Shown piece after piece: positions 15,206 through 58,700 of a DNA stretch of 64,000 bases. The position numbers and the translations under genes are program-made. The stretch comes from a virus (lineage: Duplodnaviria > Caudoviricetes). Where the stretch lies: the IMG/VR virus record IMGVR_UViG_3300046167_000801; one strand, given 5' to 3'. Numbering within the stretch: position 1 is the stretch's first letter; every line of letters starts with the position of its first letter. The notes beneath the pieces were generated by a model. That model did not search any database. It was not told where the DNA came from and was given only the letters and a program-made list of their open reading frames with translations.

Positions 15206-18200
15206 GACAGACAGTTAAACTGCGTAGAAGCGCTATATCCGGTAAGATTCCGATTAATTCACAACTACTACTTGGTGAATTATCCATGAATACAACCGAC
15301 GGTAAGATTTTCTTATCAAAATCAGGTTCAAACGGACCTTCCGTCGAAGAAGTAATAATCACAAACACACAAAATTTTGGTAATATTGACTTAGTTGGCG
15401 ATTTAACGGCAACTAATATCAGTTCATCCTTTATTGGTGATGGTGGTGGACTTTATAATATTCCTGCATCAGGAGTTACGGGTCTTAGTTTAGATCGAAT
15501 AGCGAGTTCAACCTCCACAGCATCTATTGATGCGGATGGTTTACATATTAATACGGATACTACAGTAACAGGGTCTCTCACAGCAACAGAATTTACAGGT
15601 AGTGGTTTAGGTTTAACAGATGTGCCAATTAAAATCTCAGGATCAGACGCGGGATCGACTTCTATCGATTCTACGTTCACAAGAATTAAATTCGATGATT
15701 CAACAGGTATAAAAATAAGTGGTACCACAGGTGGTGATGCGGTTGTATTCCTTTCAGGGGTTGCCTCGGAATCGGACGGTGGAGAAGGTAAAACTGCAAA
15801 GTTAGAAGTTACAAGTGCAACAAGTACATGGACATTAAATCACAATTTAAACGAAAAACACCCCTCTATTGAGGTTTTTGACAGTAATGATGAGGTTATT
15901 ATCCCACAGAAAATAGAGGCAACAAGTGTTAATCAAGTGGTTGTTAGTTTTGCATCACCTCAAACAGGTACTGTAACGGCAACTGTCGGTGGTGGATTAC
16001 CATCAATTGACTCAGGATATGAGAATAGAGTTTTATCGGTAGATAATAATGGTATTGCAACTTGGAAAACAGGAATACTTAGTGGATCTATTGATTTTTC
16101 CACTTTAGTTGATACTGGTTCCTTTAACACATACACATCATCAAATGATAACACAAATAGTAATCAAAATGGTAGATTAGATAGTCTTGAGGAATTCACT
16201 TCAAGTATTGACGATACTTATGCTACGGATAATGATGTTACAACACTCAGAACCGATTTAAATACATACACATCATCAACCGATGGTAGATTAGATTCTT
16301 TAGAGACAACAAGTGGATCAAGTAATCTAAGGTTAGATTATATAGAGTCCGTCACTTCTTCACATCACGGCAGATTAAACAGTTTAGAGACAATAAGTGG
16401 GTCCCATGACGGTAGGTTAGATAGTATTGAATCTAAAACGGGGAGTTTCCTTGTTTCTAACGACCTTTCAACAATAGAAGGGAAGATTGGGTCTTTAGAA
16501 ACAACTTCAGGTTCTCATGAGGGAAAACTAAGTAGTTTAGAAACAACAAGTGGTTCACATGATGGAAGATTAGATTCTTTAGAAACAACTTCAGGGTCCC
16601 ACGATGGAAGATTAACCGATCTTGAAACTTTTGAGACTAAAGTTGATACAGGGTTGGAGTTTACAGGTTCAAACGTAACAATAAAGGGTAATTTATTAGT
16701 TAAAGGGACAGAAACAAGGGTAGATTCAACCACAGTAGACATTGACGATAACATTTTATCACTTAATGGTAGTGGTGCGGCAAATGCGGGTATAGAAGTA
16801 AGAGATACGGAGTCCCCAGGTGTTTTATCGGGTTCTTTAATATACGATACGGGTGAAAATACTTGGAAAGCGGGTACTAAAGGAAGTGAAGAAAGATTAC
16901 TAATTAATAGTGATCTTACAACATTAGATGGTAGGTTAGATAGTTTAGAATCTACTAGTGGTTCCCACGAAGATAGAATTGATAGAATTGAAATATCAAC
17001 GTCCTCACTAAATTCATTTACGAGTAGTATTAATACCACAATTAAGGGTAAATTAAATAACGATGGTGTAATAAGTGGTTCTATACAGATAGATCATGAT
17101 GCGACCACAAATTACGTAGGTAATGAACACATTGACCACTCATCCATAACAATTGGTAGTGGTAAGGGTCTAACTGGTGGAGGTACTATCGATACAAATA
17201 GGAGTTTAACTCTCGATACTGGATCGGTACACTTCTTAAGTGGTGTAAAATCTAAATTAAATACTGAAACAGTTGTAAGTGGTTCCGCACAAATAGATAT
17301 AACAGGAACTACAAATTATAATTTAGTTGATGGTAGATTAGATAGTATTGAATCTTTTACAAGTAGTATTGATTTAACATATGCCACGGATGATGATGTA
17401 ACAGACTTAAGAAATGATTTAAATACATACACATCATCTAACGACGACACAAACAGTACACAGAATGGTAGATTAGATAGTATTGAATCGAGTACGGGTA
17501 GTTATCTAACATCATATAATGACGAATACACTACAGGGGCGACTTTTAGTACTTCAAATGGTGTTGTAACATTTACAAGAAATGATGGTGATCAATACAC
17601 GGTCGATCTTGATGGTAGGTATTTAACTTCATTTACAGAAACAGACCCAATATTTACTGCACACGCAGTTTATGACATTACATCAACTCAAATAGGTAAT
17701 TGGGACACCGCATATGGATGGGGTGATCATTCACAAGAAGGATATCTTACAACATACAATAATGAGTATACAACGGGGGCCACATTTAATGGATCCAACG
17801 GTATTATTACTTTCACAAGAAATGATGGAGATACTTACACCCTTAATATTAGTAGTACTTTAACTGACATAAATGTTACTGGTGGTACATATAATGACTC
17901 AACCCAAACACTAAGACTTAATAAATCAAATGGTACTTCTATTGATGTAACTGGATTTGCGGTGGACACCGTACTTCACACAACAGGAGCAACATTTAAT
18001 TCAAGTAATGGTGTGGTTACCTTTACTAAGAATGGTGGGGATACGTACACCGTTGATCTTGATGGAAGATACTTAACCTCATTCACAGAAACGGATCCAA
18101 TATTTACGGCACATGCGGTTTATGACATTACTTCTACCCAAATATCAAATTGGGATACCGCATACGGATGGGGTAACCATGCTAGTGCTGGTTATCTAAC

Positions 18201-21200
18201 ATCATATACAGATACGAACGAATTTGTAACGGGAGCAACTTTTAATGATGGAAATGGAATTGTTACATTCACAAGAAACAATGGTGGTGATACATTTACA
18301 GTTGATTTAGACGGTAGGTATTTGGAGTTTGAAACCAATGGTAATACTTCAGACGTTAATAATGTTACAAGAACAATATTCAGTGCTAATAATACTAATG
18401 GATCTACTTCAAATAGACCTGTTAATTGGTCAACTGTTTACACTTTAGGTGGTGGATATAACGCCTTACAGTTAGGAACCAATGAAGATTATTCTGAATC
18501 AGGATTATGGGTTAGACAATACAACGGTAACTCGGCATCTCCACAAGGATCTGGTTGGCAGAACTGGACTGAGGTTTGGACGACAAATCACTTCTCAGCA
18601 AATGATAGAAACAATTGGAATACGGCATATGGATGGGGAGACCATGGTACTGCGGGGTATTTGACTTCATTCACGGAGACTGACCCAGTATTCACATCCC
18701 ATGCCGCTTACGATATTACATCAACTCAAATAAGTAATTGGGATACAGCATATGGATGGGGTGATCATGGAAGTGCCGGATACCTTACATCATATAACGA
18801 TGAATATACAACAGGAGCTACTTTTAATGGTGGTAATGGTATTATTACTTTCACAAGAAATGATGGTGACACCTATACCGTAGACATCAGTTCAACACTT
18901 ACCGATATAAATGTCACTGGTGGTACATATAACGATGCTAACCAAACATTAACACTTAATAAATCAAATGGAAGTAGTGTGGATGTAACTGGATTTGCGG
19001 TGGACACTGTACTTCATACAACAGGTGCGACATTTAACAGTAGTAATGGTGTAATAACATTTACTAAAAATGGTGGAGATACATATACTGTTGATATTGA
19101 CGGTAGATTCTTGACAAGTTACACCGAAACACAAACATTAAATGACGTAACTACCTTAGGTGCGACAACGAGTAACGATCTACAAGTTGGTGGATTAACA
19201 ATATCCGATACATTCCCTTATTTGGATTTTGTAGATACTAATAGTTTTACTGACACTGCCGATAGGTTTAGAGTTAGAGCGGGTGGAAATAATGGTATGA
19301 TTCAATGGTCTGATTCTTCAGCAGGAACAGTAACCACTTTAATGACTTTCCTACCTGATGGTAAAATAACTATGGGTAATGGTATACAATTTACTGCCAC
19401 TGGTGGTGTAGATATGGGAACCAATACCATAACTGATGGTAAGGTTGCCCAATGGAACACAGCATATGGATGGGGAGATCACTCACAAGCAGGATACTTA
19501 ACAACATACAATAATGAGTACACCACAGGTGCAACATTCAATACAAGTAATGGTGTAATTACATTCACAAGAAACGATGGAGACCAATTTACTGTTGATA
19601 TCGATGGGAGATATTTAACTTCATTTACAGAAACAGACACCTTAAGTAGTGTAACATCAAGAGGAAATTCAACAAACAATTCTATTAGTGTTGGTGATTT
19701 CCTAGCATCTCACCAATCAGCACAGAACGCAACGACTAAGGCGGAGATGTTAAGTATGGGGGTTGCTAAGTTTAGACCCCATTCTACGAATTCGGGTACT
19801 TTAGCAATAGCACAAGTGGATGCGGGTAACTCAGTTGGTTTACAATTTACAAATGGTGCGGGTACCGCTGATTGGGACATGTCATTACAACCATTTGGAG
19901 GTAATGTTGGTATTAATAAGGTTAATCCTTCAGGTGCACTTCATGTATATAGTGGTACTTCAGAAAGATTCTTAGTTAGTGGCGATGTACATGTACAAGG
20001 TTCAACTGATTTAAATATTAATGGTGCAAGTAGAAGATTATCATTTACAAGTGGTACAGGTACTATTAGAACCACAACCGCAAACGAACTATACTTACAA
20101 ACAAACTCAACCACTGCAATTACCATAGATGCCAATCAAAACGTTGAAATTTCGGGTACTCTTTCTGCAAGTGGGTATAATAAAACAAATTGGGATACCG
20201 CATATGGATGGGGTGATCATTCACAAGCGGGATACGTAACCTCAAGTGGAAATACTATTATAGGTACGGACTCAGATATAAATACATCAGGTTCTTATGT
20301 TGTTGACCAATTAACAATGACTGATGGTGTAATAACAAGTCATTCTACAAGACAATTGTCAGAATTAAGGATTCCTGATACACGAGCGGCAGAAAAAACA
20401 CCTAATGAATATACCGATCAACACCTTTCGTTAGATTTTACCGATGAATATGGTTCTTTAGGTTCATGGTATAGTGGAATAACTTTAAAAGGTTGGACAG
20501 GTACATATGCGGCTTGGCAATTAATATCGGAAGCGGATAGTGGTATTGGAGATACAAACCTATATTTTAGACAGGGTAATGGTACTACTTGGCAATCTAT
20601 GAGAACCGTATGGACAAGTGCTAACTTTGCCAACAACTCATCTAATTGGAATACAGCGTATGGATGGGGAGATCACTCACAAGCGGGATACTTAACTTCA
20701 AGTTCAACTCAAAGTAAATACTTAAGAAGTGATACTGATGATACTACAACGGGAGCACTTACAATTGGTGAGGGTACTAACCAAGCAAGACTTATAATAA
20801 AGAAAGCGGATAACGACGTATCGGATCATATTGTATTTTATAATGGAACAACTCGTATTGGTGAGATTGGTGCACAAGATGATACATGGTTAAGAATTAA
20901 TCAAAACACAAGTAAAAATATATACACACCAAGATACATAAGAGCCGACGCAGGTTTCTTTGTTGATGGTACAAGTAAAGGTATTAATGGGTCGGGTAAT
21001 TTCATCGGTGGTACTATTGCAGGTGCAAGTGACGCGAACGTAACTAATTGGGATACCGCATATGAATGGGGAGATCATTCACAAGAGGGTTATTTAACCT
21101 CTTATAATGATGAGTATACCACAGGTGCAACATTTAATGGTGGTAATGGTATAATCACATTTACAAGAAATGATGGAGATCAGTACACTGTTGATATTAG

Positions 21201-24006
21201 TAGTACTTTAACTGATATAAATGTCACTGGTGGTACATATAATGACGCTAACCAAACATTAACACTTAATAAATCAAATGGAAGTAGTGTAGATGTTACG
21301 GGGTTCGCAGTCGATACGGTTTTACATACAACAGGTGCAACATTTAACAGTGGTAATGGTGTTGTAACTTTTACTAAGAATGGTGGAGACACATATACTG
21401 TTGATTTAGATGGTAGATATTTAACTTCAGAATCTAACAGTTTCTTGGGTGATGGTGGATCTGCAAATACTCACCCTGGCACAAATAAGGTAATATTTAC
21501 AGGTCAAGTAAGTGCAGGTTCAGGAGCATTGGGGATGCCTACCGTAGATAATTCAAATGCATTCTTAAATATTAATAGACACTCAGGTGAATACAATAGT
21601 CAGTTAGGGTTTAGTTCTAACGGTAACATATATTATAGAAAGTTTAGTGCGGCGGCAATAAACTCAACTCAAGCATGGTTACAAGTTTATCATTCAGGTA
21701 ATTTCACCAACAACTCAAGTAATTGGAATACAGCGTATGGATGGGGTGATCACAGTACTGCAGGATACATAACTTCTCAAGCGACAGACTTTGTGTCCAA
21801 ATCAAGTGGTGGTCAGTTTGATGGTTTAATCACAATTAAAGAGGATACAAATACATCAACAACCGCCGGTAAGAGTTTATTAACGTTACATAACGAAAAT
21901 TCTGATATATCACAACAACAGTCTTTTATTGATTTTAAGTTTACTGACACTAACGCAAATTACACACCACAAGTACGTATAGGTGCACAGGTTGGTCCAG
22001 ATGCGGACGCAAACGCAATGTCTAAAGAAGGTGCGGGTTCGTTTGTGGTATATACTGCACCTGTTGGTAGTGATGAGTTAGGTAATAGTAGTGGTTTAGC
22101 GGAACAGTTCAGAGTTAGTTACAATGGAACGGTTACTGCACAAGGTCAGATAGTAGCGACAGGTGGTAACTCAGGTAATTGGAATACAGCGTATGGATGG
22201 GGAGATCATTCACAAGTGGGATATCTAACAAGTAGTTCAACACAATCAAAATATCTAAGAACTGATGTTGACGACACTATAGAAAGTGGAAGTATTATAT
22301 CATTTAAAACCGCTGCTGGTACTACGAGAGGATTTTTACAATCGACAGACACAAATGACGAACATTTCATTATTGCCACATCGGGAGGTGAAGACATTGC
22401 ATTTAAGGATGGTGGTGTAGCTGGTACTACTAACATGGTAATTAGAGGTGACGGTAACGTTGTTGTAACAGGTAGTGTAACCGCATCAGGAGGAAACTCA
22501 GGTAATTGGAATACAGCGTATGGATGGGGTGATCATTCACAAGAAGGTTATATAAAAAGTTTTGATAATGATATTGACTATATAAATTCAGCATCATTCG
22601 ATACAGGTACGGGTGTTATCACAGGTACAGGTGTGGGTAATGCAGGGTTCACTGTCGATATTGATGGTAGGTATTTAAAAATATCAGATAAGGCCGCGGA
22701 TTCAGATAAACTTGATGGTATTGATTCTTCAGAGTTTTTAAGAAGTAACACGGCGGACACTTTCACAGGTACTATAACAATGGGTACTCAAAAGGCGTTA
22801 GTGGCTAATAACTATGGACGAGGTGTTTATGGTATATATTCCTCAACAAGATACCAACACGTATGGTCTATGGGTACGAGTTATAATCTCTCAGATGACG
22901 GTACAAGTGCAGGTAATTTATACGGATTAGCGTTTACACACACAAATGTTGGTGGAGAATCTAAATCAGGTTTAGATCATCAAATGTTAATAATGAGGAA
23001 TGGTACTACTGTATCTGCCATTGGGGCGGGTATATGGACAGATGGTACTATAACAACAACATCCCATGGTAATTCATCACAATGGAACACCGCATATGGA
23101 TGGGGTAACCACGCAAGTGCTGGTTACGCATCTTCATCACACACACACTCGACGAGTGATATTACAAGTGGTACATTTGTAGCGGCGAGATTCTCGCAGA
23201 GTACGAGATACAACATAGGTCTTATCCTTGGATACAGTTCTCAAACAAGAGATAAAATAAGAGTTTGGGATTCAAGTGAGTATTCGATTGGTATGAAGAA
23301 TGGGTATGATTACGGTCATATAGGATCAGGTGAATACGCAATGTCATTCCAAATGAGTAATACCGCCGGTAGAGGTTGGTGGTGGGGAGACACCTCACAT
23401 ACCGATGACCAAGGAGCCGCGTCAATCACCACCGAAGGTAAAATGGTTATTGCAAAATCACTATCAGTTGGTCAGGGTGAGACGATAACAAACCCAAGTG
23501 ACACACCATTATATGTTGAAGGTACAACTGCAGGTGAAACAGTATTCGAGGTACAAGGTACAAGTGGTCAGTTATTCTCAATAACAGATAGTTTAATAGG
23601 GGACATATTTGAAGTATCCGACATATCGGGTATACCAATCTTAACTGTTAATTCTTCAGGTGTAGTAACTGTAGACGATACTTTACATGTAACGGGAGAT
23701 GTTATTGCATACTACGCATCCGATAAGAGATTGAAAGACAATATTAAACCTATTGAAAACGCAATTGATAAAATAAAAATGATTGGTGGTTATGAGTTCG
23801 ATTGGAATTCAAACTCAAAAAATAACAATGGTCATGATGTGGGTGTTATTGCACAAGAAATAGAAGAAGTATTACCTGAACTTGTTGGAACAAGAAGTGA
23901 TGGTTATAAAGGTGTTAAGTACGAAAAACTAACAGCACTACTAATACAATCAAATAAAGAATTAATTGCGAGAGTAGAAGAACTCGAATCTAAACTAAAG
24001 AAATAG
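15202..24006 (+). CDS. Giant modular tail fibre 1 with C-terminal peptidase S74 intramolecular chaperone (2934 aa)
   Basis: Mtd_N-like N-terminus (KLRRS..GKIP....GELSMNTTDGK); coiled-coil shaft; repeated beta modules and knob-like domains; S74 signature ASDKRLKDNIKPI...GVIAQEIEEVLPELV...YEKLTALLI. Confidence 0.88.
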   Translation: MGQTVKLRRSAISGKIPINSQLLLGELSMNTTDGKIFLSKSGSNGPSVEEVIITNTQNFGNIDLVGDLTATNISSSFIGDGGGLYNIPASGVTGLSLDRIASSTSTASIDADGLHINTDTTVTGSLTATEFTGSGLGLTDVPIKISGSDAGSTSIDSTFTRIKFDDSTGIKISGTTGGDAVVFLSGVASESDGGEGKTAKLEVTSATSTWTLNHNLNEKHPSIEVFDSNDEVIIPQKIEATSVNQVVVSFASPQTGTVTATVGGGLPSIDSGYENRVLSVDNNGIATWKTGILSGSIDFSTLVDTGSFNTYTSSNDNTNSNQNGRLDSLEEFTSSIDDTYATDNDVTTLRTDLNTYTSSTDGRLDSLETTSGSSNLRLDYIESVTSSHHGRLNSLETISGSHDGRLDSIESKTGSFLVSNDLSTIEGKIGSLETTSGSHEGKLSSLETTSGSHDGRLDSLETTSGSHDGRLTDLETFETKVDTGLEFTGSNVTIKGNLLVKGTETRVDSTTVDIDDNILSLNGSGAANAGIEVRDTESPGVLSGSLIYDTGENTWKAGTKGSEERLLINSDLTTLDGRLDSLESTSGSHEDRIDRIEISTSSLNSFTSSINTTIKGKLNNDGVISGSIQIDHDATTNYVGNEHIDHSSITIGSGKGLTGGGTIDTNRSLTLDTGSVHFLSGVKSKLNTETVVSGSAQIDITGTTNYNLVDGRLDSIESFTSSIDLTYATDDDVTDLRNDLNTYTSSNDDTNSTQNGRLDSIESSTGSYLTSYNDEYTTGATFSTSNGVVTFTRNDGDQYTVDLDGRYLTSFTETDPIFTAHAVYDITSTQIGNWDTAYGWGDHSQEGYLTTYNNEYTTGATFNGSNGIITFTRNDGDTYTLNISSTLTDINVTGGTYNDSTQTLRLNKSNGTSIDVTGFAVDTVLHTTGATFNSSNGVVTFTKNGGDTYTVDLDGRYLTSFTETDPIFTAHAVYDITSTQISNWDTAYGWGNHASAGYLTSYTDTNEFVTGATFNDGNGIVTFTRNNGGDTFTVDLDGRYLEFETNGNTSDVNNVTRTIFSANNTNGSTSNRPVNWSTVYTLGGGYNALQLGTNEDYSESGLWVRQYNGNSASPQGSGWQNWTEVWTTNHFSANDRNNWNTAYGWGDHGTAGYLTSFTETDPVFTSHAAYDITSTQISNWDTAYGWGDHGSAGYLTSYNDEYTTGATFNGGNGIITFTRNDGDTYTVDISSTLTDINVTGGTYNDANQTLTLNKSNGSSVDVTGFAVDTVLHTTGATFNSSNGVITFTKNGGDTYTVDIDGRFLTSYTETQTLNDVTTLGATTSNDLQVGGLTISDTFPYLDFVDTNSFTDTADRFRVRAGGNNGMIQWSDSSAGTVTTLMTFLPDGKITMGNGIQFTATGGVDMGTNTITDGKVAQWNTAYGWGDHSQAGYLTTYNNEYTTGATFNTSNGVITFTRNDGDQFTVDIDGRYLTSFTETDTLSSVTSRGNSTNNSISVGDFLASHQSAQNATTKAEMLSMGVAKFRPHSTNSGTLAIAQVDAGNSVGLQFTNGAGTADWDMSLQPFGGNVGINKVNPSGALHVYSGTSERFLVSGDVHVQGSTDLNINGASRRLSFTSGTGTIRTTTANELYLQTNSTTAITIDANQNVEISGTLSASGYNKTNWDTAYGWGDHSQAGYVTSSGNTIIGTDSDINTSGSYVVDQLTMTDGVITSHSTRQLSELRIPDTRAAEKTPNEYTDQHLSLDFTDEYGSLGSWYSGITLKGWTGTYAAWQLISEADSGIGDTNLYFRQGNGTTWQSMRTVWTSANFANNSSNWNTAYGWGDHSQAGYLTSSSTQSKYLRSDTDDTTTGALTIGEGTNQARLIIKKADNDVSDHIVFYNGTTRIGEIGAQDDTWLRINQNTSKNIYTPRYIRADAGFFVDGTSKGINGSGNFIGGTIAGASDANVTNWDTAYEWGDHSQEGYLTSYNDEYTTGATFNGGNGIITFTRNDGDQYTVDISSTLTDINVTGGTYNDANQTLTLNKSNGSSVDVTGFAVDTVLHTTGATFNSGNGVVTFTKNGGDTYTVDLDGRYLTSESNSFLGDGGSANTHPGTNKVIFTGQVSAGSGALGMPTVDNSNAFLNINRHSGEYNSQLGFSSNGNIYYRKFSAAAINSTQAWLQVYHSGNFTNNSSNWNTAYGWGDHSTAGYITSQATDFVSKSSGGQFDGLITIKEDTNTSTTAGKSLLTLHNENSDISQQQSFIDFKFTDTNANYTPQVRIGAQVGPDADANAMSKEGAGSFVVYTAPVGSDELGNSSGLAEQFRVSYNGTVTAQGQIVATGGNSGNWNTAYGWGDHSQVGYLTSSSTQSKYLRTDVDDTIESGSIISFKTAAGTTRGFLQSTDTNDEHFIIATSGGEDIAFKDGGVAGTTNMVIRGDGNVVVTGSVTASGGNSGNWNTAYGWGDHSQEGYIKSFDNDIDYINSASFDTGTGVITGTGVGNAGFTVDIDGRYLKISDKAADSDKLDGIDSSEFLRSNTADTFTGTITMGTQKALVANNYGRGVYGIYSSTRYQHVWSMGTSYNLSDDGTSAGNLYGLAFTHTNVGGESKSGLDHQMLIMRNGTTVSAIGAGIWTDGTITTTSHGNSSQWNTAYGWGNHASAGYASSSHTHSTSDITSGTFVAARFSQSTRYNIGLILGYSSQTRDKIRVWDSSEYSIGMKNGYDYGHIGSGEYAMSFQMSNTAGRGWWWGDTSHTDDQGAASITTEGKMVIAKSLSVGQGETITNPSDTPLYVEGTTAGETVFEVQGTSGQLFSITDSLIGDIFEVSDISGIPILTVNSSGVVTVDDTLHVTGDVIAYYASDKRLKDNIKPIENAIDKIKMIGGYEFDWNSNSKNNNGHDVGVIAQEIEEVLPELVGTRSDGYKGVKYEKLTALLIQSNKELIARVEELESKLKK
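16260..16650 (+). repeat. 14-aa coiled-coil repeats GRLDSLETTSGSHD in fibre 1
   Basis: About eight tandem or near-tandem units in the translation. Confidence 0.85.
17700..23115 (+). repeat. Twelve dispersed W(D/N)TAYGWG(D/N)H junction repeats in fibre 1
   Basis: TAY codon starts at 17713, 18163, 18628, 18751, 19465, 20203, 20659, 21061, 21736, 22192, 22519 and 23095; a 26-bp stretch is identical at 20644, 21721, 22177 and 22504. Confidence 0.92.
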
Positions 24007-25179: not shown

Positions 25180-25183
25180 CGAT

Positions 25184-25516
25184 ATGTACGAAAACAGAAG
25201 ATGGTTAGTAATACCAACAACATTAATAGATACAATTGATTTCAATCAAGTACTTGAGTCATCATCAGAATCATTAAGATTTTCTGTAGATGGTTCAAAA
25301 ACTTTTATTAAATATGAGGTTAATGTGGTAACAGAAGAATATAATGAGGAATATCAAGACGCCGAAGACCCTACAATAATTTATACTAATACAATAGAAG
25401 TTGGAGTTTATGGTAGACCTTCAATTTATTCTGAAGAGTACCAAGAATATAACCACAAGGAAATCTTAGAATTATTAAGGTCTCCTGAGTGGAGCCCAAG
25501 TAATGATATTCAATAA
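25184..25516 (+). CDS. Conserved phage hypothetical protein among LamG genes (110 aa)
   Basis: IDFNQVLESS.ESLRFSVDG.KTFIKY pattern and terminal W..; possibly a fibre assembly factor (inference). Confidence 0.65.
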   Translation: MYENRRWLVIPTTLIDTIDFNQVLESSSESLRFSVDGSKTFIKYEVNVVTEEYNEEYQDAEDPTIIYTNTIEVGVYGRPSIYSEEYQEYNHKEILELLRSPEWSPSNDIQ

Positions 25517-25518
25517 AG

Positions 25519-43220: not shown

Positions 43221-43221
43221 A

Positions 43222-45947: not shown

Positions 45948-45948
45948 T

Positions 45949-46626: not shown

Positions 46627-46641
46627 ATAACACAAACTATT

Positions 46642-48303: not shown

Positions 48304-48422
48304 TGTTTAGAAAAATAATTAGATGGTTTAAGGACCGAAAAGAAAAGAAAAAAAGAGAGTTAAGATATAAGGAAAAAATAGAGAGGTTAAAAAAACAAGA
48401 CCCATTTACCTATAAGCATTAG
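48303..48422 (+). CDS. Small basic peptide ending DPFTYKH (39 aa), not in the ORF track
   Basis: TAATG-coupled to the carbamoyltransferase: MFRKIIRWFKDRKEKKKRELRYKEKIERLKKQDPFTYKH. Confidence 0.7.
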   Translation: MFRKIIRWFKDRKEKKKRELRYKEKIERLKKQDPFTYKH

Positions 48423-48423
48423 T

Positions 48424-49692: not shown

Positions 49693-49752
49693 AAAAAATA
49701 TATTTAGTCCTTATAAATCTCATCAAAACCAAATTACTATTGAATTATAAAG

Positions 49753-49786
49753 TATTTATCTAATAAGAAAAACGTTTTTATAGATG
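49753..49786 (+). promoter_or_regulatory. TATTTATC late-type element plus hairpin leader of fibre 2
   Basis: TATTTATC 49753-49760; AAAAACGTTTTT palindrome 49768-49779; ATCTA (49758-49762) can pair with TAGAT (49781-49785) over the ATG. Confidence 0.45.
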
Positions 49787-52700
49787 AATATATTTGATCC
49801 ACACATTACAGGATCCCTATCCGTTTCCGCATCTGCAGAAATACAAGGGGATTTAACAGTACAAGGAACTATCTATGGTACTGCACAGATTGACGGAAGT
49901 GTTGATAATGCAATAAGTGCATCACACGCCGCCTCCTACTTACTCACATCAAGTTTTAATGATTATAAAAATACCGCAGCTACTACTGGAAGTAATATAT
50001 TCATTGGGGATCAAACAATTAGTGGATCGTTGTTACCTCAAGGAACACTTACTCATGATTTGGGTAGCGACACTAAAAGATGGAATGATATATATTTAGC
50101 GGGAAGTACTATCGATTTGGGTGGTACAAAAATAACTAAGAATAGTGATGGTGATGTACAACTTCACGATAGTGGTAATACTTTAAAAAGATTAATTGCA
50201 TCTGAAATTGAGTTAGGTCACGGATCGAACAAGAAAGTTCTTAAAGTAAATAATGGTCGTTTAAAGTTAATGGCCACTAACGACAGTGATGAAGAGTTAG
50301 CCCAATTATCGGGTTCGTTCACTGGTTCTTTTAGAGGAGATGGTAGTGGTTTAATTAATGTTCCCGCAAGTGGGGTTACGGGTCTAAGTTTAGATCGGAT
50401 TGCAAGTACAACAGCAACCGCGTCGATATCCTCAGACAGTTTGATAACTAATGTTTCAATTATACCTAGTATCACAAATACAATTGATTTAGGTGCACCC
50501 GACAAGGAGTGGAGAGATTTATATCTTTCATCAGGGTCATTATATATAAATGGACAACAAGTACTTTCAACTACAGGTACTGAATTAAGAGTCACTACAG
50601 ATAGTGGTGAATCAATAAAAATATTAGAAACGGGTTCTGATACTATCACACTACAAACAGTTGATGGTGATATTACATTAAGTTCTTCAGGAACGGGTAA
50701 TATAGAATTAGATGCACCTATACAAATAACGGCGGGTAATAAAATAATATCTTCAGACGGAAACTCAATTGTTTTTGGTAATGGATTGATTATTACTGGT
50801 AGTATTGGATTAACAGGTACTGTCGATGGGGTTGATGTGGCATCACTAAAAACAGATGTAGACGCTATTTTAGATTCTTCTGAAGCCGATAAAGATTCGT
50901 TTGCTGAAATCGTAGGATTAATCAATAGCGTTGATACTGCGAATGACCAAGCATTTGCGGCACATTATACCGCAAGTAATAATAGACTTAGTTCATTAGA
51001 AACAACTAGTGGTTCACATGATGGGAGATTAAGTTCATTAGAAACAACGAGTGGTTCACACTCATCTAAATTAAACTCTTTAGAATTAGCGTCAGGTTCT
51101 ATAATTGAAAGGTTAGGGGAGATAGAGTTTATTACGGGATCACATGACGGTAGGTTAGATGGATTAGAAACATTTACGGGTAGTGTGGATGGTACTATAA
51201 GGTCTGACTTTAATAGTTATACCTCATCCAACGACTCAACTAATACAAATCAAAATAGTAGATTAGGTAGTTTAGAAACCAAAAGTGGTTCTTTAAATAC
51301 CGATATTAAATCAAAACTAAATACGGAAAATGTTGTTTCAGGTTCTGAGTTTGTTTTAAATTCAACCTCACCAATAACACAATATGTTGATGTTACCGTA
51401 ACTGCAAGTGGTGGTGTATATTATATAGATGGTGTAGAACAACAAATTGTCTCATTAGCGAAAGGACTAGTTTATAGGTTTGATGTGTCAGACTCTTCAA
51501 ATGCAGGACATCCATTTAGATTCTCAACGACAGATAACAATCAATACACAGATGGTGTAACTGTAAATGGTACTGAAGGTAGATCAGGGGCATACGTTCA
51601 AATTATTGTAAATCAAGACACACCACAAACACTATTATACTATTGTACCAATCATAATGGTATGGGTAATAAAGTTTTCGTCGGTGGAGCTGGTGACACA
51701 GACTCAATTACAGAAGGATCAACTAACCTTTACTATACGGATGCTAGAGTTAAATCCAAATTAAATACGGAAACTGTTATTAGTGGTTCTGAACAAGTTG
51801 ATATAACAAATACTACAAATTATAATTTAGTTACCAATAGAATTGGTTCTTTAGAATCATTCACTGCGAGTATTGATGATACATATGCGAGTGATACTGA
51901 TGTAACAACTCTTAGGAATGATTTAAATACCTATACATCATCTAATGATTCTACGAATACAAATCAAAATAGTAGATTAGGTAGTTTAGAAACCAAAAGT
52001 GGTTCACACGATGGTAGATTAGATAGTATAGAATCATTCACAAGTAGTATTGATGATACTTACGCAACTGATACTGATGTAACAACTCTTAGGAATGATT
52101 TAAATACCTATACATCATCCAACGATTCAACCAATACATCACAAAATAATAGATTAGGTTCATTAGAAACCAAAACAGGTAGTTTAGATAGCGATATAAC
52201 TGATCTAAGGGGTGATTTAAATACCTACACGTCTTCAAACGAAACAGATAAACAAAACTTAAGTGGTAGGGTAGATTCTTTAGAGACTAAAACTGGGAGT
52301 TTAACAACCGATATAAATACTTTAGATGGTAGGGTTGATTCCATAGAGTCATTTACCGCAAGTATTGATGATACTTATGCTACTGACACAGATGTAACTA
52401 ACCTAACCAACAGAGTTGGTAGTTTAGAAACCAAAAGTGGTTCATTAGAAACTACGAATACTACTCAGAATAATAGATTAGGGTCACTTGAAACAACTTC
52501 AGGTTCTCATGACGGAAGGTTAGATTCATTAGAAACCAAGACAGGTAGTTTAGATACCACCAATACCAATCAAGACGGTAGATTAGATTCAATAGAATCA
52601 TTCACTGCGAGTATTGATGATACATATGCGAGTGATACAGATGTTACTACATTAAGAAATGATTTAAATACTTATACCTCATCTAACAACACAACCAACC

Positions 52701-55700
52701 AAAACCAAGATATTAGATTAACTAGTTTAGAAACTGAAAGTGGTAGTGTTAGAAGTGATTTTAATACCTACACATCATCTAACGATTCGACCAATACATC
52801 ACAAAATAATAGATTAAGTTCTTTAGAAACTAAGACTGGTAGTTTAGATGGTAATATTACAGGTTTAGATGGTAGGTTAGATACAATAGAAGGTGGTTTA
52901 GAATTTACAGGTTCTAACGTAACTATCAAAGGTGATCTTTTAGTTAAGGGAACAGAAACAAGAGTGGATTCAACAACTGTTGAGATCGGTGATAATATCA
53001 TATCTTTAAATGGTAGTGGGGCACAAAATGCGGGTATAGAGGTTAGAGACAACACTTCTCCTGATTTATTATCGGGTTCATTATTATGGGACGGACAAAA
53101 CAACTATTGGAAGGGTGGTCAAAAAGGATCTGAAGAAAGATTATTAGATAATACCGATTTAACCACTTTAGATAGTAGATTAGATGGTATCGAGGCAGAA
53201 ACAGGAAGTTATCTTACAGACTACAACAATGAATACACAACAGGTGCTACATTTAATAGTGGTAACGGTGTAATTACATTTAAAAGAAATGATGGTGACA
53301 CATTTACTGTTGATATAGACGGTAGATTTTTAGACACAAGGGCACAAGTACATAGTGAATTATATAGTACAAATGGTGACGCTAATGATTATACAGAATT
53401 TGGTATATATAGAAATTACGCGTCTAACGGACCTATCAGTGGTCACAACACAATATTACATGTATCTCAAACAGACGGTAATTATGGTTTCCAATTAGGG
53501 GGATCAACAATAGTTAATGGTGACGGATTATACTTTAGAAATTTTGCGGGTACTGACTCAATAACGGGATCAACGTGGTATCACATCGCAACAAGAGATT
53601 GGGTTGATGATCAAAATTTCCTAACAGACTATAATGATGAATATACGACAGGTGCCACTTTTAATACTAGTGACGGTGTAATTACATTCAAAAGAAATGA
53701 TGGGGATACGTTTACCGTAGACATTGACGGAAGATTCCTAACAAGTTATTCTGAGACAGACACCTTAGATAGTGTAACTACAAGAGGGAATATTACAACA
53801 AACGACATAACTGTTGGTAATATAACTGCAGGACCCACTCTCGAATTGGGGGGTAATTTTAGTATACAAGGTACTGACGGAACTTACTACCAAAGAATAA
53901 AAACTATTGACACTTCATCAACAAGTGCGAATACTTTTAGTTTTGATGTTAAATTAGGAGCGAGTGCGAATTGGAAATCATTATTAATACTTAACCAAAA
54001 CGATACCGCTACTTTTTCAGGAGAAGTTATTGCTACTTCATTCACTAAAAGTGGGGGTACATCATCACAATTCTTAAAGGCGGATGGTAGTGTAGATTCA
54101 AATACATATTTAACACAGCACCCACCAATTGCATCACCAGCGTCTTCTAACAATAGTGGAAGAACATATATCCAAGATATACTATTAGACGGTAATGGAC
54201 ACGTAACAGGACTAACTACGGCCACTGAAACTGTCGTCAATACAGACACAAATGATATTGACTATGTGAGTTCCGCAACATTCAATACGGGTACAGGTGT
54301 AATAACAGGTACTGGTGTGGGTAATGCCGGATTTACTGTTGATATTGATGGTAGGTACGTTGAGTTAGGTGGAGGTACGATGACGGGTGGTTTAATTACA
54401 ACAAATTTACAAGTTCATGGAGGTTCCTCACAAATAGTTTTAAAAGACACAACGGACGATGACGACCATTCTATATTATTTAGAAATAACGCCGACGGTG
54501 ACGATTACAAGATAACAACCAAAGACTTTACGTCAGCCGCTACGGGAGACGGATTCTACCTTGGTTCAACGGGGGGTGACAACGTTGCATTAGTAACAAA
54601 CAACACAACCGCATTAAATATCGACACTTCTCAGAATTCGGTCTTTTCAGGGAACGTTACTGCATCTTCATTTATTAAAAGTGGGGGTACTTCATCTCAA
54701 TTCTTGAAAGCGGACGGTAGTGTTGATAGTAATACCTATTTAACACAACACCCGAATATATCTGCAGCATCTTCATCTAATAATAGTGGTCGAACTTACA
54801 TACAAGACATATTACTTGATAGTAATGGTCATGTTACAGGTTTAACAACTGCAAGTGAGACTGTAACTAATACAGACGAATTTACAACAGGTGCAACATT
54901 CAATACAGGTAACGGTATTATCACATTCACAAGAAATGACGGAGATACTTATACTGTAGATATTGATGGTAGGTATTTAACGTCATTCACAGAAACCGAT
55001 CCAATATTTACGGCTCATGCCGCTTACAATATCACATCGACTCAAATAACTAATTGGGATACCGCATATGGATGGGGTGACCATGCAGATGAAAATTACC
55101 TAACACAACACCCTAATGTAAATGCGGCAAGTAGTTCTAACAACAGTGGTAGAACATATATACAAGATATTTTATTAGATGGTAATGGTCATGTTACAGG
55201 TATAACCACATCATCAGAAACTGTGGTCAATACCGATGAATATACGACAGGTTCTACTTTTAATAGTGGTACGGGTATCATTACATTCACAAGAAATGAT
55301 GGTGACACTTATACTGTTGATATATCTGCAACATTATCGGAAGTTACTGTAACGGGTGGTACATATGATGGTTCAAGTCAAACATTAACATTGACAAAAT
55401 CAGATGGCGACACGGTAGATGTTACGGGTTTTGCGTTGGATACTGACGTAAACTACTATCTAACAGGTGCAACATTCAATACAGGTACAGGTGTAATCAC
55501 TTATAAAGTTAAGGGTGCATCCGATGTTACTGTTGATATTGATGGAAGATACTTACCACTTAGTGGGGGTACTATTTCAAGTAATAACACATATACTTTA
55601 AAGTTAGAAAACTCAAGTAATGGGTTAGGTACGGGAATTGAATTTAGTGATAACCCAGGGGCTGGTACACAAAGAGCATATATAACACATTACCATGGTG

Positions 55701-58700
55701 ACGGTTCTAGTTATGGTTCTGGTGCGTCTATAGTGTTATCAACAAATCAACCCACAATGACAATACTTGCCGATGGTAAGTTAATGTACAAAGAAGGTAT
55801 ATACTCCAAACCGGCGACAGGTACAGGTGCGGGTACAAGAAAAGATCAAAATTGGGATACCGCTTATGGGTGGGGAGACCACAGTACTGTTGGATATCTA
55901 ACTGGTTTTACTGAAACCTATACCGAACATGAGAATATAAGTGCGGCTTCCTCCTCTAATAATAGTGGAAGGACATACATTCAAGATATATTAGTTGATA
56001 GTAATGGTCATATAACTGGTATCACTACCGCAACAGAAACTGTTACTAATACAGACACAATCGATTATATTAATTCAGCGACATTCAATACAGGTACAGG
56101 TGTAATAACAGGTACTGGTGTGGGTAACGCAGGATTCACTGTAGATATTGATGGTAGATTTGTAAAATTAGGTGGAGACACCATGACAGGTACTCTTGAC
56201 GTACACGTTCCTGATGCAGGTACAATATTAAGTTCAGGTAATTCATCTGCAACAGGTACACCTGACCAATTCTTCATTAAACACGTTAATGGTGGTGTTG
56301 CAATTGGGAACCTTAGAGGTGATATAAACTTCACAAGCGGTAACTTAAAGAATGACGGTAATCTCATATGGGATGCCGGTGATTTCACATCAACCAACAT
56401 AAGTAATTGGGACACCGCATATGGATGGGGTGATCACAGCACTGTAGGATACCTAACAGGATATACCGATACAAATGATATCGATTATGTTAATTCAGCA
56501 ACATTTAATACAGGTACAGGTGTCGTAACATTATCGGGTGTTGGAAATGCGGGTGCAACTGTTGACCTTGATGGTAGATACCTATTAGATACAACAGACA
56601 CATTTACGGGAGCACTTACAATTGCCGGTGATATAAGAGGTAATGGTCAACAACTAATATTAAACGCAGGTGAGTCCTACGCATATGCAACAGGACAGAC
56701 AAACGAATATGTTTATATCAATGCAGAACAAGGTCTTGAGGTTAATTCAGAAACAGGTAATTGGACAGTAAACGGATGGTCAGATAGAAAAACAGCATTA
56801 CTTAGAGGGGATTTACTTAGGTTAGATGGGGAAGACCTCACCAAAACTAATATCCAAAACTTCAAAACCGCATATGGATGGGGTGACCATTCCACTGAAG
56901 GGTACGTGAAAAATGACGAGTATACAACAGGTGCCACATTTAATAGTGGTAATGGTATAATCACATTTACAAGAAATGATGGTGACACATATACGGTTGA
57001 TGTAGACAATAGATATCTACAATTGTCGGGAGGATCGTTATCGGGTAATCTTAATATGACAGGTACTAACCCAATGATAAAGTTTGTTCCGACAGGAACT
57101 AATGATGGTGCGGGTATTAGATTTAACTACACCAATAATGATGGTGAAATGGAGTTTTGGACTTCTGATGATTATAGTGAACCATTTGTTTGGAGAGCAT
57201 ACGATGTAGGTTTAGATGGGACTGGAAACTATCAAGAGTGGATGAAACTCTACCAAAAGAAACTTTATATTGACGGTGAGGAATTAAGTAAAACAAACAT
57301 ACAGAACTTTAAAACCGCATATGCATGGGGTGACCATTCAATAGCGGGATACTCGGAAGTTGATTATTACACTACAGGTGCCACTTTTAATAATGGTTCA
57401 GGTACCCTTGAATTCACAAGAAATGATGGAAACACTTACAGTGTAAGTTTATCATCGGCCCTAGTAGACGTTACTGTAACGAGTGGTACATATAACAGTA
57501 GTAATCAGATACTAACCTTAACCAAATCAAACGGAAGTACCGTAGATATTTCAGGGTTTGCGGTTGATACAGATGTTAACTGGTATACGACAAGTGCATC
57601 ATTCAATACGAGTAACGGTATTATAACAGGGACACACCATGGAGGTACATGGACTGTCGATATTGATGGTAGGTATGGTTTAAAATCACTTTCAGAAAAT
57701 AAAACATATACAAGTGGTGGTAATGCTGTTGGTTCCTATTTAGGTGGACACTACTCAGGTGGTGGTACAGAAAAACCAAATTCAGCAACGTTTGGATCAG
57801 GAAAACTGAAGATAGCGATGCTATCAAACACTAACCTTGGATTCGGGGGATCTTGGAATGATGTACTTTGGATTAGTGCATATAATGGTAGTGATGTAAA
57901 AGGGTCACACGCATTGGTGTTCGACAAGTACAGTACAAATGTTTACGTCTCTGACCAATCATACGACTCGGCGTCATGGGGTACTGGATACCAATTATGG
58001 CACACCGGACACTTCCAACAAAGCAGTATTAATAATTGGAATACCGCATATGGATGGGGAGACCACTCAGCGGCAGGATATGCATCAGGTGACTTCCTAT
58101 TAAAATCTGGTGGAACTATGAGTGGTGCCATTAACATGAACGGTAGTGGTATTGATATGGTTAATGGTTCGATAAGTAATGTTAACCATATTACAATTGC
58201 AGACCCAGGACCAACAGAAGGTATTGAATGGTTAGGTGGTAATGGGTTTAGAATTGTTGAATCACCAAACGACTTAACAACAAACAGTGGTGGTAATTTA
58301 CAATTCGTTAAATCAAGTACAAGAATATTAACTTTAGGATCAAATGGTCAGTCAGAATTTACTGATAAGTTAACTCTAACATCTTCTACTTCAGGATCAA
58401 CAATATTTGATATCCAAGGTACAAGTGGCCAGTTATTCTCAATCACTGATGATTTGACGGGTGATCTATTCGCGGTTTCAGATTCATCAGGTGTACCAAT
58501 CCTAAATGTTAATGCGAATGGTGCGGTAACACTCGACCCACTTGGTTCTTTATATGTTGGAAATAATAAAGTAATTAATGGTAGTGGTAATATTGAGTTT
58601 GATGGACCTGTAACCACATCCAACCAAGGTAGAGGTATCTATTGGACAGGTTATGATAAAGAAGGTACCACAGATTTCTCAGATACCGCACATATATTAC

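Follow-up and report, generated by a model that had tools for sequence, protein, structure and literature searches.

Giant tail fibres of a marine myophage as knob-cassette arrays: evidence from related genes for exchange at a conserved neck motif

Comparison of two giant fibre genes carried by a 64,000-nt viral sequence (the whole stretch analysed, hereafter the window) with those of its relatives indicates that, on an evolutionary time scale, related phages have exchanged single knobs, changed their order, and gained or lost them, with a conserved neck motif as the exact site. The reading that we consider probable is that ordinary recombination is guided by homology at a structurally fixed neck, as happens at the conserved motifs of T-even phages.

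Results

Both ORFs are best explained as trimeric tail-fibre proteins encoded in the host-recognition region of a marine myophage that is large, abundant and uncultured. Their identity as tail fibres is supported in that PHROG tail fibre families were matched (for fibre 1, phrog_9729, E 6e-97, and phrog_22284), fibre 1 ends in an S74 chaperone tip (which also matches the long tail fibre distal subunit PDB 6f45, E 1.1e-8), and the motif occurs four times in SRSM4_041, a tail fibre of phage S-RSM4. Fibre 1, for which syntenic orthologues exist (N-terminus MGQTVKLRRS), runs from an N-terminal anchor through coiled-coil-like GRLDSLETTSGSH repeats and 11 motif-bounded cassettes to a C-terminal tip; fibre 2 has coiled-coil repeats and 5 motif-bounded cassettes, framed by an anchor and a tip that are both unlike those of fibre 1. 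No gp37 or gp38 family was recovered in the arrays (Pfam, NCBIfam). The interval between the two genes encodes (Pfam) LamG proteins, GT2/GT7 transferases, two radical SAM proteins, a UDP-glucose dehydrogenase and a carbamoyltransferase.

The neck motif (N-W-[ND]-T-A-Y-G-W-G-[DN]-H-x3-G-Y; 15 residues) was located by regular expressions on the translations in 12 copies in fibre 1 and 6 in fibre 2 (Table 1), the very number of YGWGDH-type junctions given by the first-pass annotation, and is absent from all other frames and genes of the window. Recounting upheld two further claims, namely that TATGGATGGGG is exact in 14 of the 18 copies (all on the + strand and inside the two fibre genes; 0.07 expected from shuffles) and that a 26-mer is identical at 20644, 21721, 22177 and 22504 (5 further copies having at most 3 mismatches). 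That all copies lie in frame is true, but trivially so for a protein motif repeated within one ORF. Between copies the 48-nt element has a mean DNA identity of 76% (as compared to 31-34% in the adjoining 48 nt), and the longest exact run common to a pair of copies has a median of 14 nt (range 5-35 nt, mostly 11-20 nt).

Table 1. Positions of the fibre genes, neck motifs, cassettes and modelled segment in the window.
Feature	Coordinates	Strand	Motif Tyr codon start	Evidence or remark
Fibre 1 gene	15202..24006	+		2934 aa ORF; ORF list and translation
Fibre 1 neck 1	17701..17745	+	17713	W-D-T-A-Y-G-W-G-D-H-x3-G-Y
Fibre 1 neck 2	18151..18195	+	18163	TAC GGA; WGNH variant
Fibre 1 neck 3	18616..18660	+	18628	
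Fibre 1 neck 4	18739..18783	+	18751	Left end of 86% identity block common with L119 orthologue
Fibre 1 neck 5	19453..19497	+	19465	Within trimer-modelled segment
Homotrimer-modelled segment, fibre 1 aa 1412-1690	19435..20271	+		Neck, hairpin shaft repeat, ETDTL linker, knob, neck
Fibre 1 neck 6	20191..20235	+	20203	Left edge of cassette H; Trp1664-Trp1664 inter-chain contact in trimer model
Cassette H, fibre 1 aa 1668-1819 and both necks	20191..20691	+		Motif-to-motif in L249 (94.4%), L267 (90.1%), L270 (90.8%)
Fibre 1 neck 7	20647..20691	+	20659	Right edge of cassette H; among four identical 26-mers
Fibre 1 neck 8	21049..21093	+	21061	YEWG variant, GAA
Fibre 1 neck 9	21724..21768	+	21736	Left edge of cassette J; identical 26-mer
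Cassette J, aa 2179-2330	21724..22208	+		Motif-to-motif in L253 (93.4%), L254 (96.2%)
Fibre 1 neck 10	22180..22224	+	22192	Junction of cassettes J/F; identical 26-mer
Cassette F (327-bp block)	22186..22530	+		Motif-to-motif in L249 (95.9%), L246 (90.7%), L259 (91.1%)
Fibre 1 neck 11	22507..22551	+	22519	Right edge of cassette F; identical 26-mer
Fibre 1 neck 12	23083..23127	+	23095	WGNH; precedes conserved C-terminal tip
Peptidase_S74 intramolecular chaperone domain, fibre 1 C-terminus	23719..23886	+		Pfam PF13884, E 1.1e-17
Fibre 2 gene	49784..60115	+		3443 aa ORF; ORF list and translation
Fibre 2 neck 1	55055..55099	+	55067	
Fibre 2 neck 2	55853..55897	+	55865	Sole GGG copy
Fibre 2 neck 3	56408..56452	+	56420	Similarity to orthologue L131 restarts here
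Fibre 2 cassette U, aa 2213-2363	56420..56872	+		83% protein identity end to end with L120 fibre-1-type cassette
Fibre 2 neck 4	56861..56905	+	56873	N-F-K-T-A-Y-G-W-G-D-H
Fibre 2 neck 5	57308..57352	+	57320	YAWG variant, GCA
Fibre 2 neck 6	58037..58081	+	58049	Left end of 92% identity block common with L130

The description of the fibres as cassette arrays holds among their relatives, in which cassette number and order are variable rather than fixed: complete fibre-1 orthologues measure 2705-3495 aa and have 6-13 motifs, and all 31 orthologous fibre genes (partial ones included) have 3-17 motifs in differing orders (e.g. E..H vs H E). Fibre-2 orthologues have N-termini of 95-97% identity, yet differ in architecture (3265-3305 aa, 7 motifs). 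Furthermore, unique internal ends of shared blocks are enriched in the motif element (92 of 156, as compared to 20.7 expected, ~4.4-fold; maximum 36 in 5000 permutations), these endpoint counts, like the codon counts below, not being phylogenetically independent. Among 42 doubly internal blocks, 15 run motif-to-motif, each spanning exactly one cassette at 90-98% DNA identity, and, judged by the mismatch profiles, the switch lies in a stretch from about -15 to +39 nt relative to the Tyr codon. A 141-aa cassette with both edges inside the motif, for example, has ~97% DNA identity between two genes (L119 and L120) that otherwise have ~60% protein identity. The window cassettes H, J and F likewise recur motif-to-motif (90-96% identity) beside other, unrelated neighbours, and F is the block between 22192 and 22519 that had been singled out as an exchange unit. 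The proposed exchange between the two fibres is matched by cassette types common to fibre-1-type and fibre-2-type genes. Many other block ends coincide with the conserved elements DGRY (hairpin end), ETDTL or AADSDxLDG or with the coiled-coil repeats, or else lie at a distance of 60-220 nt from a motif.

Motif enrichment of block ends is equally predicted by selection for intact domains after random breakage, and because every knob boundary bears some conserved linker, position alone cannot separate the two causes.

It could be argued that these arrays are artefacts, produced either by one recent tandem amplification or by metagenome assemblers that misjoin contigs at the shared motif. The motif does act as a branching hub in assembly graphs, as Logan contigs (k = 31) break at five fibre 1 copies and many unrelated contigs share the motif alone. 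No bridging independent contig was found for the fibre 1 junctions at 20203, 20659, 21736, 22192 and 22519. We nevertheless regard an artefact as extremely improbable: the copies are separated by unrelated cassettes and are not alike at neighbouring synonymous sites, the exact runs are mostly shorter than the usual assembly k-mers, and the same architectures were recovered from three (L126/127/128) and two (L129/130) independent samples. In addition, 16 junction types are replicated across independent samples (four cassette types each having two independently replicated right neighbours), and are therefore not assembly chimeras.

The neck motif is a protein element first. Its profile detects it (E<=1e-3) in at least 8,463 protein cluster representatives (605 at E<=1e-30; up to 17 copies each), and beta-hairpin shaft repeats of 35 aa often come after the neck. 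The DNA pattern retrieved at least 118 viral contigs with the motif (GC 32-66%), in whose copies the first Gly is encoded by GGT (57), GGA (44), GGC (34) or GGG (18), a spread of codons that does not bear out a universal DNA signal. Modelled in three copies, fibre 1 aa 1412-1690 reached a self-association score of 0.81 (0.00 for the best of 3 controls). In the calibration of the tool, which used two copies, its mark was attained by 21 of 30 proteins solved as one-chain pairs and by 0 of 23 solved as single chains. Contact agreement over three runs was at least 97% and partner pLDDT at least 88, with the motif residues W1424, H1427 and W1664 in the interface; the model thus supports self-association of the segment as a predicted homotrimer, and fits the earlier suggestion that the motif may form a trimeric neck.

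A purely structural neck, although unlikely in our judgement, would account for part of these observations: illegitimate breakage would occur anywhere, only neck-cut products would fold, the DNA identity of the motif would be a by-product of Trp/Gly/Tyr codons, and GGA would be ancestral. Conservation of the protein across the above GC range with all four Gly codons, the place of the motif in the predicted interface, block ends at other linkers and at knob starts without shared DNA, and a relative (L132) with GGT in 7 of 9 copies all agree with it. Against it we set the frequency with which exchanged blocks have both edges in the same 45-nt element, far above that of any other place, the precedent from experiments on T-even adhesins, in which crossovers fall in short conserved motifs (Trojet et al. 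2011, PMC3157838), and the codon usage of the first Gly.

This residue is encoded by GGA in 15 of the 16 YGWG copies of the window (once by GGG; the YEWG and YAWG variants have GAA and GCA), gene-wide Gly usage in the fibres being 65% GGT and 26% GGA. Gly-Trp pairs of the window outside the motif (Gly-before-TGG counts minus motif copies) are mostly GGT (20; GGA 8, GGG 1), and the bias is therefore not due to codon context. Nor do the copies stem from one recent amplification, which had been named as a possible source of the GGA signal, since nearby synonymous sites vary between window copies (Thr ACC/ACA/ACG, second Gly GGT 11/GGA 7, Asp 10/6, His 11/7). The synonymous-conservation test in the clade confirmed the bias as real: the first Gly of 238 unique-context copies is GGA in 192, GGT in 26 and GGG in 15 (expected 64, 149 and 18), and GGA makes up 82% at this site vs 33% in non-motif Gly-Trp pairs (GGA 31, GGT 55, GGG 7), which rules out codon context. 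The second Gly, Asp, His and Tyr+10 codons track gene usage. As synonymous sites 6-15 nt away are at gene-usage equilibrium while the first Gly is held, GGA does not look like the plain inheritance that a purely structural neck would imply. Simple gene conversion would also have homogenised the neighbouring Gly2, Asp and His, which it has not, a point that weighs against our favoured reading.

Motif copies at recent block ends have GGA in 86 cases, GGG in 6 and GGT in 0 of 92 (the last also speaking against a purely structural neck), as compared to GGA in 106 of the 142 copies elsewhere (p 2e-4 by Fisher's test; p 7e-4 with near-identical junctions collapsed), a contrast partly confounded by the fewer close relatives that GGT-rich lineages have in the set. 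Compared with motif copies inside shared blocks (close relatives, no breakpoint), block-end copies gave p = 0.21 for GGA/non-GGA.

The first-pass annotation had envisaged a built-in recombinational toolkit and, as a speculation, a loosely Chi-like core. A dedicated generator, in which the 11-14-nt core (GCA)TATGGATGGGG would be a nuclease, Chi-like hotspot or site-specific enzyme signal driving frequent within-population shuffling, appears to us very unlikely. It would be in keeping with the lean of three synonymous sites of the 14-nt core to one consensus in the clade (GCA 83%, TAT 78%, GGA 82%), and with the 100-300-bp structural variants that long-read work has reported in host recognition cluster tail genes of other persistent marine myophages (PMC12379486). 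On the other hand, the core differs in other lineages, the motif copies are all direct with 0 inverted, and the annotation's remark that the window holds no diversity-generating retroelement, invertase or recombinase is borne out in so far as Pfam detected no recombinase, invertase or reverse transcriptase in 30 other ORFs (a scan leaving out 7 listed ORFs of at least 150 aa, including 48424-49692 and three paralogues at 60127-63525, as well as every ORF below that length). The Chi-like idea fails, as GGATGGGG occurs only twice outside motif copies, i.e. at chance level. Rapid shuffling is likewise at odds with the fibre-1 array, for which every listed Logan contig piece matches without difference in four seawater runs (2017, 2018, 2023 and 2025), and of which 20 runs of 19 studies contain 98-99% of the words.

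Discussion

Each fibre consists of an anchor and a coiled-coil shaft followed by a string of knob cassettes, each closed by a neck that would be conserved mainly for its contacts in the trimer core. Under homology-guided ordinary recombination, the single codon of Trp and the few choices for Gly and Tyr would let this neck supply cassettes that are otherwise unrelated with 11-35 nt of shared DNA identity, and crossover inside the ~45-nt neck could proceed by ordinary homologous or short-homology recombination, with co-infecting relatives or copies in one genome as partners. The reading frame of the chimeras would automatically be preserved and their joint would fall on a domain boundary, and selection would for that reason keep them; in the long term single cassettes would be moved, permuted, added and removed, whether in one fibre, from orthologue to orthologue or from one of the two loci to the other. 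We infer that crossover is guided by DNA homology, beyond selection on viable products, and that the clade-specific GGA core reflects it; the knobs presumably bind host receptors. As to recombination capacity, the contig of one relative carries a RecA-like (RecA/UvsX-like) 343-aa ORF, and that of another a T4-type Gp23 capsid gene.

As in T-even adhesins, the variable recognition segments are bounded by protein motifs that are short and conserved, natural chimeras have their exchange points in or near these motifs, and general phage recombination (without a dedicated recombinase) results in in-frame shuffling of host-recognition modules. Unlike in T-even phages, to whose gp37/gp38 families the arrays have no sequence relation, the unit here is a whole knob cassette of 110-250 aa, repeated 5-16 times along a fibre of 2,700-3,600 aa (as opposed to loops within one tip), one connector motif is common to at least 2 fibre loci and to thousands of protein clusters, one synonymous connector site is conserved in the clade of the window phage, and exchange is deduced from sequence comparison. 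The annotated tail fibre SRSM4_041 of the cultured marine cyanomyophage S-RSM4 (Synechococcus) shares with the window fibres the neck (4 copies in 639 aa) and the hairpin shaft repeats, but is much shorter than they are and has GGT at the first Gly in 3 of 4 copies; we found no account in the literature of this motif, or of exchanged cassettes, in such cyanomyophage fibres.

The host recognition cluster of pelagimyophages and cyanomyophages is described as a hypervariable island where radical SAM cassettes and glycosyltransferases are intermixed with tail fibres (Zaragoza-Solas et al. 2020, PMC7029224). Such phages are reported to persist over a decade, their fibre genes showing small structural variants (PMC12379486). 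The window resembles this island in the genes that its fibres flank, and the available parts of both papers make no mention of a junction motif, cassette units or variant break sites. With diversity-generating retroelements (Mtd) and the Cin/Gin/Min invertase shufflons the window phage has in common the target (the receptor-binding end of the fibre) and the outcome (alternative fibres), but it differs from them in showing neither a reverse transcriptase nor an invertase among the 30 other ORFs scanned with Pfam, in having no inverted copies, and in that its fibres vary through exchange of whole cassettes between genomes over evolutionary time instead of through mutagenic retrohoming or inversion. 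The known T4-type way of evolving host recognition would thereby be extended to ocean phages.

Organisation of the fibre genes and their genomic setting

The neck motif (N-W-[ND]-T-A-Y-G-W-G-[DN]-H-x3-G-Y) was found to be confined to the two giant fibre genes (12 copies in fibre 1, 6 in fibre 2, and none in other frames), where eighteen necks, all direct and on the + strand, bound unrelated cassettes (i.e. the knob blocks between two necks). The copies are 76% identical in DNA over a 48-nt element (chance level alongside 31-34%), and between two copies the longest exact run measures 14 nt in the median and never exceeds 35 nt. Within the element, TATGGATGGGG is exact 14 times (0.07 expected), an identical 26-mer is found at four copies, and the first Gly of YGWG is encoded by GGA in 15 of 16 copies (gene-wide usage: GGT 65%, GGA 26%; Gly-Trp pairs outside the motif in the window: GGT 20, GGA 8, GGG 1). 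The copy numbers, exact cores, 26-mers and GGA bias described by the first-pass annotation were thereby all recovered. One recent amplification, which that annotation had named as a possible source of the GGA preference, is ruled out, since the flanks are unrelated and the nearby synonymous sites (Thr, second Gly, Asp, His) differ between the window's copies. Fibre 1 additionally carries three neck-hairpin-hairpin modules that are 85-93% identical in protein.

Both fibres match PHROG tail fibre families (phrog_9729, E 6e-97; phrog_22284); fibre 1 has a Peptidase_S74 domain, which fibre 2 does not have, and its S74 tip matches a chain of PDB 6f45 (E 1.1e-8). The + strand carries 37 of the 42 listed window ORFs of at least 150 aa. 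At 4726-6214, a D12-class N6-adenine DNA methyltransferase (PF02086, E 8e-20) adjoins a NusG-like protein (PF02357, E 1e-10), NusG homologues being unusual in phages. The gene mix between the fibres has the same layout as the 'host recognition cluster' of pelagimyophages and cyanomyophages (PMC7029224). The LamG gene immediately downstream of fibre 1 (24007-25179) is apparently absent from the same position in the syntenic loci L119 and L120, as judged from ORF sizes and spacing in lists of ORFs of at least 300 aa, and has relatives (56% identity) in other contigs (L123-L125).

Megablast and tblastn searches with the flanking genes gave no match among cultured phages. The syntenic viral contigs behind L119 and L120 (146 and 176 kb) were rated by CheckV as 44% and 51% complete, which would imply genomes larger than 300 kb. 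A RecA/UvsX-like ORF and the gene for a T4-type Gp23 capsid protein are present in the contigs of syntenic relatives. This group may consist of jumbo phages whose capsid is of the T4 type.

Positions of the fibre genes, their modules and cassettes, and the inter-fibre genes (nucleotides of the window unless marked aa)
Feature	Position	Strand	Description
Fibre 1	15202-24006	+	giant ORF, 2934 aa
Fibre 2	49784-60115	+	giant ORF, 3443 aa
Neck-hairpin-hairpin module	about 17713-18080 (fibre 1 aa 838-960)
Neck-hairpin-hairpin module	about 18751-19120 (fibre 1 aa 1184-1306)
Neck-hairpin-hairpin module	about 21061-21430 (fibre 1 aa 1954-2076)
Cassette H	20191-20691		recurs motif to motif in other orthologues, different neighbours
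Cassette J	21724-22208		recurs motif to motif in other orthologues, different neighbours
Cassette F	22186-22530		327-bp example of the first-pass annotation; recurs motif to motif, different neighbours
Peptidase_S74 intramolecular chaperone	fibre 1 aa 2840-2895 (C-terminus)		PF13884, E 1.1e-17
Inter-fibre stretch	24007-49692		five LamG (concanavalin-like) proteins
Inter-fibre stretch	24007-49692		two GT7-like glycosyltransferases with inserted LamG domain; one GT2
Inter-fibre stretch	24007-49692		two radical SAM proteins, UDP-glucose dehydrogenase, carbamoyltransferase

Cassette exchange at the neck

Complete fibre-1 orthologues share a common start (MGQTVKLRRS) and a common tip, yet are 2705-3495 aa long and contain 6-13 motifs; fibre-2 orthologues (N-termini 95-97% identical, 3265-3305 aa) have 7 motifs, as compared to 6 in the window, and in the full set of 31 genes, to which incomplete ones also belong, 3-17 motifs occur. 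Cutting these genes at the motif yielded 206 cassettes, of which 78 are singletons and the others form 41 types of two or more members. The type strings differ among close relatives and are permuted (e.g. E..H, E H, H E), several types being common to fibre-1-type and fibre-2-type genes. The fixed cassette order that would have spoken against shuffling is therefore not what the orthologues display, as both number and order vary. The fibres of L119 and L120, about 60% identical in protein, have in common one 141-aa cassette that is about 97% identical in DNA, with the identity beginning in the upstream neck and stopping in the downstream one. Cassettes H, J and F recur at 90-96% identity, and the last of these bears out the 327-bp block that had been proposed as a swap unit. 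Moreover, the locus L275 joins a fibre-2-type N-terminal region to a fibre-1-type (S74) tip (its contig, Ga0209137_1000091, also carries a normal fibre-1 orthologue, L266) and in the locus L277 the N-terminus is of yet another, third kind, which indicates that anchors and tips are exchanged besides knobs.

The positions of exchange were mapped from blocks shared between all gene pairs (at least 90% identity over at least 250 nt), by counting the unique internal ends in the array regions and scoring an end as lying in the motif if it fell -27 to +51 nt from a Tyr codon (the Y of YGWG). By this measure 92 of 156 ends are in the motif (20.7 expected; maximum of 36 in 5000 permutations), an enrichment that answers the first-pass annotation's question of whether orthologue breakpoints fall there. 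Fifteen of the 42 blocks with two internal ends run from motif to motif, and every one of them is exactly one cassette. In mismatch profiles, 24 left and 30 right boundaries pass from unrelated sequence to cassette-level identity inside the element, with a minimum at GGA TGG. The remaining ends lie at the hairpin end (between DGR and Y), in the ETDTL and AADSDxLDG linkers and in coiled-coil repeats, so that any repeated conserved segment can serve and the neck is the main one. The GRLDSLETTSGSH-type coiled-coil repeats (window 16300-17500 and 51000-53000) are found at the ends of in-frame indels between orthologues (e.g. 177 nt, 534 nt), and are a second recombination substrate in both fibre genes. 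On these sequence comparisons, the fibres are cassette arrays in which cassettes have been exchanged at the neck motif.

The exchanged arrays are not assembly chimeras: the same fibre architectures came up in independent samples (three in one instance, two in another), sixteen types of junction were seen in more than one sample, four cassette types each have two independently replicated right neighbours, and the exact runs at the neck are mostly below the usual assembly k-mers. Logan contigs from four runs break at the motif copies at 20203, 20659, 21736, 22192 and 22519, and for that reason these five fibre-1 junctions have no bridging independent contig. Dozens of unrelated Logan contigs have nothing in common but about 31 nt of the motif, which is a hub in assembly graphs and a likely cause of fragmented metagenomic fibre genes; as a practical warning, fibre genes in phages of this type tend to fragment at this branching point and need a check by long reads. 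Logan 'joints' that could be taken for junction-to-junction deletions had sides of 24-35 nt or fibre-2 letters between them, and were therefore attributed to paralogue cross-mapping.

The motif as a widespread and putatively trimeric neck

A homotrimer model of fibre 1 residues 1412-1690 (neck, hairpin repeat, linker, knob and neck, modelled in three copies) obtained a score of 0.81, as compared to 0.00 for the best of three controls, with at least 97% of contacts in agreement between runs and pLDDT of at least 88; in the tool's calibration, in which two copies were used, 21 of 30 proteins solved as pairs of one chain reached the mark and 0 of 23 solved as single chains did. W1424 and H1427 of one neck lie in the predicted interface, and W1664 of the next neck touches its own copy in another chain. 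The model thus supports, rather than shows, that this stretch forms a homotrimer, and we read the motif as a putative trimer-core neck that would close each knob; a metal site built from three Asp-His pairs is speculation. The trimeric neck suggested by the first-pass annotation gains a homotrimer with motif residues in its interface, as a prediction carrying a two-copy calibration. An AlphaFold2 monomer of one cassette, computed without alignment, was unusable (pLDDT 30), and the ESM Atlas leads (0.85-0.87 to gp37_C, pyocin knob and Gp34_trimer) were weak. Only 5 distinct homologues of this AlphaFold2-modelled knob were present across all fetched loci, and when a jackhmmer query kept the necks on both sides, its hits drifted to cassettes of any kind between two motifs. 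Matches of the hairpin repeat to Stx B and the superantigen beta-grasp were dismissed as noise (about 18-22 bits against cut-offs of 27-165).

A degenerate AYGWGDH DNA pattern was retrieved from at least 118 viral contigs (GC 32-66%) with the same surrounding residues; among the matches listed, the first Gly is GGT in 57, GGA in 44, GGC in 34 and GGG in 18. Furthermore, a 37-column profile built from the 18 copies and searched against representatives of 50%-identity clusters matched at least 8,463 of them at E<=1e-3 (605 at E<=1e-30), and the matches listed contain 4-17 copies per protein in lengths of 383-5166 aa. The source databases give no informative names for motif-bearing clusters, Pfam and NCBIfam models have no match in the arrays, PDB chains match the motif neither by profile nor by sequence, and a full-text literature search with the motif string returned no relevant paper. 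In Synechococcus phage S-RSM4, a protein annotated as tail fibre contains four motif copies, with GGT as the first Gly codon in three. In some proteins (P0004, a profile match of 967 aa with 14 copies, and similar ones) a neck recurs every ~70 residues, so that a shaft can be built of necks and hairpins alone, without knobs.

Synonymous-site conservation of the motif core

The GGA preference persists in the clade: in 238 unique-context copies the first Gly is GGA 192, GGT 26 and GGG 15 times, whereas gene usage would give 64, 149 and 18. The second Gly follows gene usage (GGT 145, GGA 85), as do Asp, His and Tyr+10, while GCA and TAT are each mildly favoured at their sites and ACC at the motif Thr is accounted for by the Thr-Ala context (35% ACC). 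Codon context is rejected as the cause of GGA, because non-motif Gly-Trp pairs (GGA 31, GGT 55, GGG 7 in the clade) use GGA in only 28% of cases in the window and 33% in the clade; the bias thus withstood the comparison with usual codon usage that the first-pass annotation had called for. It is lineage-specific, as the related fibre locus L132 uses GGT in 7 of 9 copies.

Motif copies at recent block ends have GGA 86, GGG 6 and GGT 0 times, as compared to 106 GGA among the 142 other copies (p 2e-4, and p 7e-4 once near-identical junctions are collapsed). These counts lack independence and the comparison is in part confounded; with copies inside shared blocks (close relatives, no breakpoint) as the reference, the GGA versus non-GGA difference has p = 0.21. 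These figures are suggestive of uninterrupted identity in the motif core favouring exchange. It is conceivable, though we judge it improbable, that the neck is a standardised DNA connector besides being a protein neck, its core (GCA)TATGGATGGGG (11-14 nt) being kept at synonymous sites within this clade by readier recombination of cassettes that have the majority connector at their flanks, or by phage nuclease targeting. If so, over 100 knob cassettes, pooled across the ocean, could be pluggable in frame into several fibre genes, amounting to a host-range gene-cassette system that needs no integrase. GAT-CAY in the motif Asp-His codons (e.g. 17725-17730) creates GATC, and GAC is in excess at the motif Asp in the clade (82, as compared to 49 expected), which may reflect mild GATC avoidance in a phage encoding a Dam-like methylase.

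Comparison with known diversification systems

No recombinase, invertase or reverse transcriptase was detected by Pfam in the 30 other window ORFs scanned (7 listed ORFs of at least 150 aa were outside the scan), in agreement with the first-pass reading. A diversity-generating retroelement needs a reverse transcriptase along with template and variable repeats, and these 30 ORFs contain no reverse transcriptase domain; invertase shufflons of the Cin/Gin/Min/Rci kind combine inverted crossover sites with a site-specific recombinase, whereas the copies here are all on the + strand and the same ORFs offer no recombinase. Chi-like hotspots are oriented octamers that are enriched genome-wide and serve as recognition sites for RecBCD or AddAB. 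The resemblance to them that had been suggested for the G-rich core did not hold: GGATGGGG is present 15 times within motif copies but only 2 times in the rest of the 64 kb (1.9 expected by chance), and is not over-represented genome-wide.

The fibre-1 array itself is widespread, as 98-99% of its sampled words were present in 20 seawater runs from 19 studies, and in four runs (2017, 2018, 2023, 2025) every listed Logan piece was without difference, contigs being unable to show rare variants. Thus, from the recombinational toolkit initially proposed, the cassette arrays and the exchange at the neck stand, and no dedicated or fast system is evident. Long reads of other persistent marine myophages are reported to show structural variants of 100-300 bp in the tail genes that belong to the host recognition cluster (PMC12379486), which are not linked to a motif where that paper discusses them.

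The closest analogy is with T-even gp37/gp38, in which conserved motifs flank variable recognition segments as the necks here flank cassettes, and chimeras have exchange points in or near the motifs, to which the motif-centred block ends and the 15 single-cassette blocks correspond. By this analogy, exchange at the neck would work like T-even conserved-motif exchange (PMC3157838), with the difference that the connector here is unrelated and very widespread and that the units are whole knobs. Pfam, NCBIfam and PDB searches found no gp37/gp38 homology (His-box or GRM domains) in the arrays.

Implications for marine myophages

In the large, abundant myophages of the surface ocean, host range is set by fibres that are almost wholly unannotated. 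The finding gives these fibres a legible syntax, with anchor, shaft, knob cassettes and tip as its elements, and names a connector that extends over thousands of protein clusters and has escaped the Pfam and NCBIfam models. It also makes testable the question of whether short DNA homology, beyond protein fitness, steers where receptor-binding modules recombine. Natural sequences show single knobs to be the units of exchange, both from phage to phage and between fibre loci.
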